58,445 nt of DNA. Origin: a virus. Shown here one piece after another: positions 52,862 through 54,660 of the stretch; within the stretch, counting starts at the first letter, position 1; the number at the start of each line of letters is the position of its first letter. Under the pieces are notes generated by a model that saw nothing but the letters and a program-made list of their open reading frames with translations, was not told the origin of the DNA and ran no database searches. The translations under genes and the position numbers were made by a program. Location: UHGV virus genome UHGV-0021275; one strand, given 5' to 3'.

Positions 52862-53695
52862 ATGGCCGACGATGAACTGGAGTTGTATGACGATGCCGGT
52901 GGTGATATCGGTGGTGACGCTACCGGCGATGATATGGCAGATGCAGAGACAGCTGAGCCGGGCAAAGGCGTAACCGATGACGGGCTTACATGGTCCGCGC
53001 GAGTCGCGCAGATTGCAGCTATTGCCGTTGCTGTGATTAATACGAAAGCTGCTCTTGATATTGCCAGTAAACAGGAAAAGCTGGCGAAGAAGTATCTGCA
53101 AATGGCGAAGGAACGCCAGCAGTACTATTACGACGTTTATGTTCCTTGTGAAAACACCGAAGTGCAGGAAGCCTGTAATCTTGAGCCGTGTGAGATGCAC
53201 AAGGATGTACAGGCCGGGCGTGCGAAGGCGTCAGTGCGGCATGAATTTACGGGTCGTACGGAGCGCGAATTGCAGTGTATCAGTCGGTATTGTACCGGGA
53301 AAAAAGCGGCAATTATTCGTGACCGGGAACTGGAAGAAGCTACGGCGTTAGCGTTGTCTGCGAACCTTGCTCGTAGATATGAGGAAGCCTATAAAGACAC
53401 CTGTGACGATGTGCGGTGGTCGCGACGTGCGAATGCACTTAGTCGTGGTCGTGACATTATGGCACAGGCGCAGACATTCAGCGGTTTCGCTATGGGTATG
53501 TTCGGGCGTCTCGGAGAGCAGGCTGGACGTGGCGCGGCAGGGGCAATGGCATATTTAGGCTATTCAATGGAACGCCGGGATATGCCGCAACGTGAACCTG
53601 TGCAACGGCCACAAAGACTTGGCCAGTCGTTCCCACTGCCGTCACCGGAACTGGAAGTGCTACCGCAACCGAAGCCGGTTAGAGTACTTGGTTAA
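52862..53695 (+). CDS. Hypothetical structural protein, paralog of 53710-54660
   Basis: 277 aa. Shares blocks with the next gene: A.IAAIAVAVINTKAALDIASKQEKLAKKY vs LAAVAVATFNTLAMIRIAEKQLDIANEY, and DDVRWSRRANALSRGRD vs DDVRWNRRSQALNRGRD. Confidence 0.55.
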   Translation: MADDELELYDDAGGDIGGDATGDDMADAETAEPGKGVTDDGLTWSARVAQIAAIAVAVINTKAALDIASKQEKLAKKYLQMAKERQQYYYDVYVPCENTEVQEACNLEPCEMHKDVQAGRAKASVRHEFTGRTERELQCISRYCTGKKAAIIRDRELEEATALALSANLARRYEEAYKDTCDDVRWSRRANALSRGRDIMAQAQTFSGFAMGMFGRLGEQAGRGAAGAMAYLGYSMERRDMPQREPVQRPQRLGQSFPLPSPELEVLPQPKPVRVLG

Positions 53696-53709
53696 GGAGG
53701 CATAATATT

Positions 53710-54660
53710 ATGGCTGCATGTGCGATGGCCCAGGGTAACTGGAATACCGGGACGGTAAAGTCTACTGAGGTAAAAACAGAGTCCATTGAGAAGATTGAAA
53801 ACTTCCTGGGTATGACGAAGAAGAATGGGAAGGAAGATGGCTTCTGGCCGGAACCGCAGGTTACGGACGTCGGTGTAAAGAGTAATGCGAAGTGGGCACG
53901 TCTTGCGGCAGTAGCCGTCGCTACGTTCAATACGCTAGCGATGATTCGTATTGCAGAAAAGCAGCTGGATATCGCGAATGAGTATTACAAATTATCTCGC
54001 AGGAACTGGGATCGCTTTCGTGAAATCTTTGAACCGTGCGAGCGGAAAGAAATAGCAGAAGCATGCAGCGCACCGTTGTATCAGGAGAAGTATGACCAGC
54101 AAGCTGCGGATTATATGAACGAGGTCGACCGCACATTCGGTGTCGCGGAAGACCGTATTATGGACCTGTATAAACGTTATGGTATTTGTCACGACCCATC
54201 ATTAAGCCGTGATATTGCTTTGGCCCGTTCACAGGTCGCCGGGGATTCCGGTAACTTTGCGTATCGTTATGAAGAGTTCCGTAAGATTGCGCGTGATGAC
54301 GTCCGCTGGAATCGCCGTTCGCAGGCGCTTAACCGTGGGCGTGACCTGCCATCTGACGCTGTGAAGTATGCAAAAGCGGCCGCTGACGCGTTTAATGAGC
54401 AGGGGAATATGTTGGGGTCTGCTGCACAGGGCGCGATGAATGCGTTGGGGTATTTCTCGGCAAGAAGTGAGACTACGTATCCACAGGCACCACGTCGGGC
54501 ACAGAGTCCGTACCTTGTTGGTCAGGCACCGAATGGCGTGTACGGATGGATCGGTAATAATCCAATGCCTGTCGGAGCAGATGTATCTGGTGCGCAGTAT
54601 ACGGCACAGAATTTCATCGGAAGCAGTATTGGAGCACAAAATCCAGGAACGGGGGTGTGA
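53710..54660 (+). CDS. Hypothetical structural protein, paralog of 52862-53695
   Basis: 316 aa; start inside AAGGAGGCATAATATTATGG; see the paralog. Confidence 0.55.
   Translation: MAACAMAQGNWNTGTVKSTEVKTESIEKIENFLGMTKKNGKEDGFWPEPQVTDVGVKSNAKWARLAAVAVATFNTLAMIRIAEKQLDIANEYYKLSRRNWDRFREIFEPCERKEIAEACSAPLYQEKYDQQAADYMNEVDRTFGVAEDRIMDLYKRYGICHDPSLSRDIALARSQVAGDSGNFAYRYEEFRKIARDDVRWNRRSQALNRGRDLPSDAVKYAKAAADAFNEQGNMLGSAAQGAMNALGYFSARSETTYPQAPRRAQSPYLVGQAPNGVYGWIGNNPMPVGADVSGAQYTAQNFIGSSIGAQNPGTGV

Follow-up and report, generated by a model that had tools for sequence, protein, structure and literature searches.

Two retained tandem paralogues downstream of the tail nozzle gene in an uncultured podovirus-type genome as candidate internal virion proteins

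For podophages of the GP4, Bcep22 and Stx types, cryo-electron microscopy (cryo-EM) resolves the capsid and the tail and does not resolve the internal proteins, and the route by which DNA and giant polyvalent proteins cross the cell envelope is unexplained. According to the phi24B preprint, the giant polyvalent protein of this phage is abundant in virions and invisible in the reconstruction, and its authors propose that it is an ejection protein (bioRxiv 10.64898/2026.04.10.717836). Another virion protein of such phages, gp70 of Bcep22, is annotated as a virion structural protein and is itself known from virion presence only. JC1 gp64, which stands at the gp70 position and is listed as 91% identical to its DC1 homologue, was found by mass spectrometry (MS) in CsCl-purified virions with 9 unique peptides, 45% coverage and the fourth-best score (PMC9144972, Table 6). 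The present study concerns the virus genome UHGV-0021275, a stretch of 58,445 nucleotides (hereafter, the window), and in particular two adjoining genes of its late operon, A and B (pair 1; Table 1). These genes are tandem paralogues of ancient origin, both retained under purifying selection, and the proteins they encode appear to be remote relatives of the gp70 type.

The original prediction, made from the letters of the window, had named three tandem gene pairs, placing pairs 1 and 2 in the structural module and pair 3 in the early region. All six open reading frames (ORFs) are present where it put them, the peptide blocks that it quoted occur in their translations, and tandem duplication followed by divergence, which it proposed, holds for all three pairs, with significant identity in each on formal pairwise alignment (BLASTP E 1e-10 to 1e-36; shuffle z 16-54). 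In pairwise BLASTP, 79/229 positions were identical in pair 1 (34%, 120 bits, E 1e-36), 45/152 in pair 2 (30%, 43 bits, E 1e-10) and 27/56 in pair 3 (48%, 47.8 bits, E 1e-13), the similarity of the last pair being limited to the N-terminal halves. The Smith-Waterman z values against 1000 shuffles were 54.1, 15.8 and 19.6 for pairs 1, 2 and 3, respectively, and in each case 0/1000 shuffles matched the observed score. Chance or compositional artefact as the source of these similarities has nothing in its favour except that pair 3 is short and that pair 2 has a low identity; this explanation is already refuted by the above statistics and by the preservation of the pairs in relatives, and has practically no probability left. 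No further paralogue pair was found by all-against-all BLASTP of the 451 ORFs of the window. Direct DNA repeats between the copies of any pair were not found, the similarity being confined to the protein level, and the duplications are therefore old, with no recent one among them. The three pairs are genuine old tandem duplications, every copy of which has been retained by selection.

The label of structural module agrees with the position of pairs 1 and 2 and, for pair 1, also with the remote homology to a virion protein shown by MS. At the same time, the description of such pairs as notable for a compact phage genome was overstated: old paralogous pairs are common in phage structural modules, as exemplified by phi24B, which, according to its preprint, has two adaptor rings with one common fold (bioRxiv 10.64898/2026.04.10.717836). 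Note that a further tandem pair, consisting of two adjoining DUF29 genes, was observed at positions 27325-28178 of pSTEC648_2 (CP061838.1), at a place occupied by different genes in the window; tandem paralogues thus recur in this lineage. This element, a relative that is 77% identical, is circular, 60.5 kb in size, and described as a "non-mobilizable plasmid" in a complete E. coli genome.

A word-indexed search for orthologues of pair 1 yielded 32 proteins for A and 23 for B, the sources being metagenomes as well as assemblies of E. coli and Klebsiella. The order A-then-B, preceded by a conserved small gene (~140-160 aa in the relatives, always ahead of A), was found in 7 independent loci (the window, L001 from IMG/VR, L004, L006, L014, L015 and pSTEC648_2), the divergence among which extends down to ~29-36% identity. 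An exhaustive profile search of 1.84 billion representatives recovered 652 cluster representatives of the pair 1 family at E <= 1e-3, and by cluster look-up the divergent members were nearly all metagenomic proteins. The best 148 of the 652 clusters were divided by subfamily hidden Markov models (HMMs) into 82 A-like and 66 B-like ones, with 10 ambiguous assignments. In a neighbour-joining tree, the A and B proteins stood apart from the single-copy proteins of Bcep22, Parlo and douglas in 100% of bootstraps, and A was monophyletic in 99%.

Both A and B are under purifying selection, with a ratio of nonsynonymous to synonymous substitution rates (dN/dS) of about 0.1; the approximate values for the window versus pSTEC648_2 were 0.11 for A, 0.07 for B and 0.06 for the tail nozzle gene located upstream. 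Moreover, the Shine-Dalgarno sequence of B, AAGGAGG, contains the stop codon of A (TAAGGAGG), and in L014 and L015 the A and B genes overlap. The conserved order, the tree, the subfamily split, the dN/dS values and the overlap of the A stop codon with the B Shine-Dalgarno sequence together show, as far as sequence comparison can, one ancient duplication followed by the retention of two non-interchangeable, co-expressed genes. The suggestion, made in the original prediction, that pairs 1 and 2 encode hetero-oligomeric components is consistent with the conservation of gene order, with the co-retention of the copies in all relatives examined and with the purifying selection on both copies of each pair; for pair 1, the position of the B Shine-Dalgarno site over the A stop codon is also counted in its support.

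By their profile matches, A (E 1.8e-36, residues 18-230) and B (E 1.4e-34, residues 51-247) are members of phrog_37635, a large uncharacterised family. Protein A has an acidic disordered N-terminus, an Ala/Val-rich hydrophobic helix at about residues 41-69, the motifs PCE..EAC, RYCTG and DDVRWxRRxxALxRGRD, and a C-terminal end reading ...VRVLG. Protein B carries an N-terminal extension that starts M-A-A-C and a C-terminal extension of ~35 aa. In the joint alignment of A and B orthologues (alignment A1), the common core comprises GVTDxG, the Ala/Val-rich hydrophobic helix, PCE..EAC, RYEE and DDxRWxRRxxALNRGRD, followed by a Gly/Ala-rich GAxGA..LGY segment and then YP. The A-type proteins carry RYCTG, and most of them end exactly at R-I-R-G. 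Most B-type proteins have a Met-x-Cys start (MACAC, MVCAC, MPCVA or MTCVA) with T/V/Q-rich short repeats after it (window positions 53710-53760; A1 columns 1-40).

The connection to a protein with an established virion location was provided by phrog_8003 ("virion structural protein"), the profile of which matched A (E 1.9e-6) and B (E 5.6e-8) with partial coverage. True members of this PHROG score far better (Bcep22 gp70, E 1.9e-137; Parlo gp78, E 1.7e-158), and VPAG_00066 of Vibrio phage douglas 12A4 belongs to phrog_611 with a secondary match to phrog_8003. In hhalign, the A/B profile A1 matched gp70 with 72% probability (E 3.4e-5, 118 columns), douglas VPAG_00066 with 83% probability, and a four-sequence gp70-type profile with 75% probability (E 2.4e-5, 128 columns); the aligned blocks were ...Y.D.Y.P(C/L)E... 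and ...RR.qA(L/I)N.G.... On this profile evidence, A and B appear to be remote homologues of the gp70 type that lie outside phrog_8003 itself. The gene order is also common to the window, Bcep22, Parlo and Cimandef, running from the nozzle through the small gene(s), the gp70-type gene(s) and further genes to the giant protein; within the loci examined, the last three phages each have one copy of the gp70-type gene.

AF2 predicts an all-alpha fold for A that includes a helix of 67 residues (39-105), the pLDDT of the core being 80-96. Neither A and B nor the gp70 family had a match among the chains of the Protein Data Bank (PDB), although both the nozzle and the adaptor of the window are matched by the GP4-type tail 8jov (8jov_A, E 3e-30, and 8jov_2, E 1e-11, respectively); the lack of a match where the homologous tail has been solved accords with A and B being internal and unordered. 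More generally, PDB sequence and profile searches gave no informative match for A, B, the alignments A1, A2 and A5, or the 375-aa and 198-aa proteins. Assignment of A and B to the family of T7 gp14, which is internal virion protein B and forms the outer-membrane portion of the T7 ejectosome, was ruled out by sequence (hhalign probability 0.1%; PDB sequence and profile searches empty), and no similarity was found between T7 gp12, gp13 and gp14 and their counterparts in the window.

The explanation that we favour, with moderate confidence as a whole, is that one ancestral virion protein of the gp70 type (phrog_8003) gave rise to both A and B, which have each specialised and act as internal or ejection proteins, possibly as a hetero-oligomer. 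Under this explanation, the two proteins would be co-translated late and made together, given the overlap of the B ribosome-binding site with the A stop codon. They would be packaged inside the head with the lysozyme-like and giant proteins encoded downstream, and at infection would leave through the nozzle along with them. The hydrophobic helix, the long helical hairpins and the Gly/Ala-rich segment might then engage the envelope and help to build or anchor a trans-envelope channel, the A/B part of which would probably be a mixed assembly; copy-specific contacts would come from the additional termini of B and, in A, from the basic C-terminal tail. That A and B are located in the virion, are ejected, insert into the membrane and form hetero-oligomers is what we infer. 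A bolder version, which we regard as tentative and rather doubtful, would make A, B and the conserved 140-aa upstream protein the obligate hetero-oligomeric, membrane-inserting part of an undescribed ejectosome type, unrelated in sequence to those of T7 and P22 and delivering the giant polyvalent protein, in a large uncultured podovirus clade to which plasmid-like elements from E. coli and Klebsiella also belong.

Several points weigh against the internal or ejection role and the history on which it is built. The placement of A and B in the virion is indirect, and the whole of phrog_37635 is an unstudied family. The link to gp70 is weak (HMMER E ~1e-6 to 1e-8, hhalign 72-75%, ~120-130 columns), and the hydrophobic helix, for which the 19-residue Kyte-Doolittle mean reaches 1.6 (A) and 1.45 (B), lies just at the classical threshold for a membrane segment. 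The comparison of A1 with T7 gp14 returned the very low hhalign value given above, the monophyly of B received a bootstrap support of only 45%, and the synonymous divergence between the window and pSTEC648_2 is saturated (dS >1), which makes the dN/dS values approximate.

The leading rival, which we nevertheless consider unlikely, is that A and B are virion-associated loaders or chaperones that bring the giant protein, and perhaps the lysozyme-like protein too, into the procapsid, in the manner of P1 Hdf, DarA and DdrA for DarB, with each paralogue binding a different cargo or capsid site. Phage P1 needs helper proteins to package DarB (discussed in PMC9144972), and the authors of the JC1 study state that the packaging helpers of its DarB-like protein are unidentified and may be among the virion proteins of unknown function (PMC9144972). 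The position of this gene family immediately upstream of the giant DarB-like or polyvalent protein gene in all relatives agrees with a loader, and the predicted helical, partly disordered architecture would suit an adaptor. However, no resemblance in sequence to the Dar helpers of P1 was seen, no search aimed at it having been made, the conserved hydrophobic helix and the Gly/Ala-rich C-terminal segment fit membrane-active proteins better, and the two roles overlap, since such loaders are injected as well.

A role outside the virion, as assembly chaperones or as membrane proteins of the infected cell (tail or ejectosome assembly, lysis timing) whose genes lie in the late operon only by coincidence, is less likely again, and we would assign it a small probability. 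Such a role would be compatible with the indirect virion placement of phrog_37635, the uncharacterised state of the small flanking genes and the remoteness of the gp70 homology, but the gp70 orthologue of JC1 ranks 4th among the virion proteins, Bcep22 gp70 carries a virion annotation, and the lysis genes of the window (holin, 5975; endolysin, 6595) are found in another place. Still less probable is that A and B are redundant or alternative versions of one protein, for example host-specific ones used one at a time, rather than obligate partners. The whole conserved core and all key motifs are indeed common to A and B; yet redundant copies are normally lost, whereas A and B have both been preserved, with their order unchanged, in 7/7 loci and down to ~30% identity, with low dN/dS in both and subfamily-specific N- and C-terminal features, and the only genomes observed to have one copy lie outside the A+B clade. 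Among these alternatives to the internal or ejection role, the loader is thus the main rival.

The window is a short-tailed phage type genome of 50.9% GC, for which no close relative was found among 50,697 deposited phage genomes; searches of cultured phages at near-identity and at the protein level, with the region and with B, gave no match. The portal is ~26% identical to the nearest cultured portals. The nozzle gave tblastn matches in Bcep22, Ralstonia phages, Serratia phage Parlo, Vibrio phage douglas 12A4 and short-tailed Stx phages. BLASTP detected no similarity between the two adaptor-region genes of the window. No useful literature was found on STEC648 or on 8JOV. The window is a complete circular element opened within the giant gene: the frame from 56503 is open to the last base and joins the ORF at 2-4963, giving a protein of ~2302 aa (56503-58445 + 1-4963), and pSTEC648_2 has a 2318-aa gene at the same place. 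This giant protein is the counterpart of phi24B gp47 and Bcep22 gp75. The lysozyme-like protein encoded ahead of it is a probable cell-wall-degrading virion protein, and the 136-aa and 242-aa genes probably belong to the same internal-protein block as pair 1.

Table 1 Coordinates of the features of the window discussed in the text
Feature	Coordinates	Strand	Remarks
Pair 1, copy A	52862..53695	+	277 aa; predicted all-helical; phrog_37635
Pair 1, copy B	53710..54660	+	316 aa; core of A plus N- and C-terminal extensions
Pair 2, copy a	42204..42701	+	165 aa; modelled eight-strand beta-sandwich
Pair 2, copy b	42703..43152	+	149 aa; same predicted beta-sandwich core, no N-terminal arm
Pair 3, copy a	27209..27523	-	104 aa; early region; orthologue in pSTEC648_2
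Pair 3, copy b	27576..27863	-	95 aa; ~56 N-terminal aa common with copy a; no pSTEC648_2 counterpart
Terminase	38324		Late operon
Portal	39811		Late operon
Five small/medium genes, including pair 2	between portal and scaffold-like gene		Late operon
Scaffold-like protein, then major capsid protein	45747 (major capsid protein)		Late operon
Adaptor genes	48202 and 48761		Followed by a 423-aa protein, then the nozzle
Tail nozzle homologue	50754..52400	+	Ties the module to the GP4 / Bcep22 / Stx-phage tail type
Conserved small gene	52438..52860	+	140 aa; directly upstream of A in every locus examined
136-aa (phrog_1365) and 242-aa genes	54664..55802	+	Between pair 1 and the lysozyme-like gene
Lysozyme-like protein	55815..56501	+	pSTEC648_2 orthologue annotated glycoside hydrolase family 104
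Giant polyvalent protein, N-terminal part	56503..58445	+	Frame runs off the window end
Giant polyvalent protein, C-terminal part	1..4963	+	1653-codon ORF at 2-4963; LPD38 and YkuD-like (L,D-transpeptidase-like) domains
Holin and endolysin	5975 and 6595		After the giant protein gene
Plasmid-style maintenance genes	7690-8341, 9262-12381, 17381-19648, 20206-21141, 31871-32617	-	

Two neighbours of pair 1 deserve a separate mention. Identity of the 52438-52860 gene product as a GNAT protein was not supported by BLASTP, hhalign or Pfam, though the equivalent slot of Bcep22 holds an acyl-CoA N-acyltransferase. The 136-aa protein encoded after B (54664-55074) contains an HExxH-like motif, VHECAH, and may be a small metallopeptidase-like protein in the internal-protein block. 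Additionally, plasmid-style maintenance genes were observed in this podovirus-type genome, namely those for a HigB toxin with a helix-turn-helix (HTH) antitoxin, ParB, a DUF927 primase-helicase, a family A DNA polymerase and ArdA, and no integrase was seen in the window. The window and pSTEC648_2 may represent an undescribed phage-plasmid lineage that has no cultured relative in the phage collection.

The second tandem pair of the late operon lies between the portal and scaffold-like genes, with copy b starting 1 nt past the stop codon of copy a. Copy a was modelled as an eight-strand beta-sandwich (core pLDDT 85-93), in which an N-terminal arm of ~25 aa and a Cys-Cys loop are both disordered. 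The order of the two genes is kept in pSTEC648_2 (80% and 76% identity) and in the relatives L007 and L008 (48% and 50%), the cross-matches between the paralogues were recovered in relatives, and the approximate dN/dS for the window versus pSTEC648_2 was ~0.07 for each copy. A search with peptide patterns found no relatives of pair 2 in IMG/VR and the JGI metagenomes. Convincing structural similarity was limited to uncharacterised proteins from uncultured podoviruses; in comparison with the YomS / XepA C-terminal domain and with capsid-associated beta-sandwich proteins, the scores were in the generic jelly-roll/cupin range, with no sequence similarity. The two copies could be proposed, with low confidence, as minor virion or decoration-type proteins acting as a hetero-pair.

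Cys-Cys doublets were observed in three close head-module proteins, as CWCC in a 64-aa hydrophobic protein (41998-42192), as GCCRNG in copy a of pair 2, and as NNCC at the N-terminus of a 375-aa repeat protein (43152-44279). The doublets are kept in L007, and the copy b gene (42703-43152) lies between the genes for the second and third of these proteins. The 375-aa protein, downstream of pair 2, has internal repeats L.GGVTLD..A.. and is 447 aa long in L007 (8411-9754), and could represent a virion protein that is fibre-like or has expanded by repeats.

Judging from the available sequences, pair 3 forms a small early family that occurs in this clade only and varies in copy number. Its copies have the N-terminal pattern ...E(Q)R.EV.AA..AL.AVCEK...PM... 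in common, and no family match was found in Pfam, PHROGs or NCBIfam. A search for pair 3 among the collected plasmids and phages recovered pSTEC648_2 alone, and peptide patterns of pair 3 and its neighbour found nothing in IMG/VR and the JGI metagenomes; identical copies occur only in near-identical 58-59 kb contigs. The single copy of pSTEC648_2 is 43% identical to copy a over 79 aa, and its neighbour is an unrelated ANR-family regulator gene. ANR-family identity (NF033650) was considered for pair 3 and rejected, as neither copy matches and only this neighbouring gene does (E 1.7e-9); a suspected third member of the pair (26895-27194) was also tested and not supported. The location of pair 3 in the early, leftward-transcribed region that also encodes ArdA makes a host-takeover or anti-defence role a reasonable guess, and the diversified early effectors of the original prediction are likewise a guess.

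What is new in these results is that phrog_37635, with its 652 cluster representatives, is tied to a virion protein type shown by MS, and that one large clade keeps two specialised copies of it, which become candidates for the missing ejection apparatus of GP4-, Bcep22- and Stx-type podophages. Otherwise the picture, in which anciently duplicated neighbours are maintained by selection in the late operon of a phage, is an ordinary one; pair 1 is a duplicated variant of a known virion protein family, and the novelty is modest.

Among known systems, the phi24B/GP4 adaptor pair resembles pair 1 in being encoded by adjacent genes from one ancestor; according to the phi24B preprint, the two adaptors form distinct co-assembling layers of one virion machine. 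The adaptors differ in belonging to another protein family with a known tail location, and the window encodes a homologous adaptor and nozzle in addition to pair 1. The closest described counterparts of A and B are Bcep22 gp70, JC1 gp64 and Parlo gp78, to which they are linked by remote homology, the same genomic slot and a similar size (217-418 aa), with a hydrophobic N-proximal segment and a Gly/Ala-rich C-terminal part on both sides. The identity is, however, ~23% over ~125 aligned columns, and the Cys motifs PCE..EAC and RYCTG are missing in gp70, which has PLQD... instead. Finally, the gp70-type phages carry one copy of the gene, whereas the clade of the window carries two diverged copies in a fixed order.

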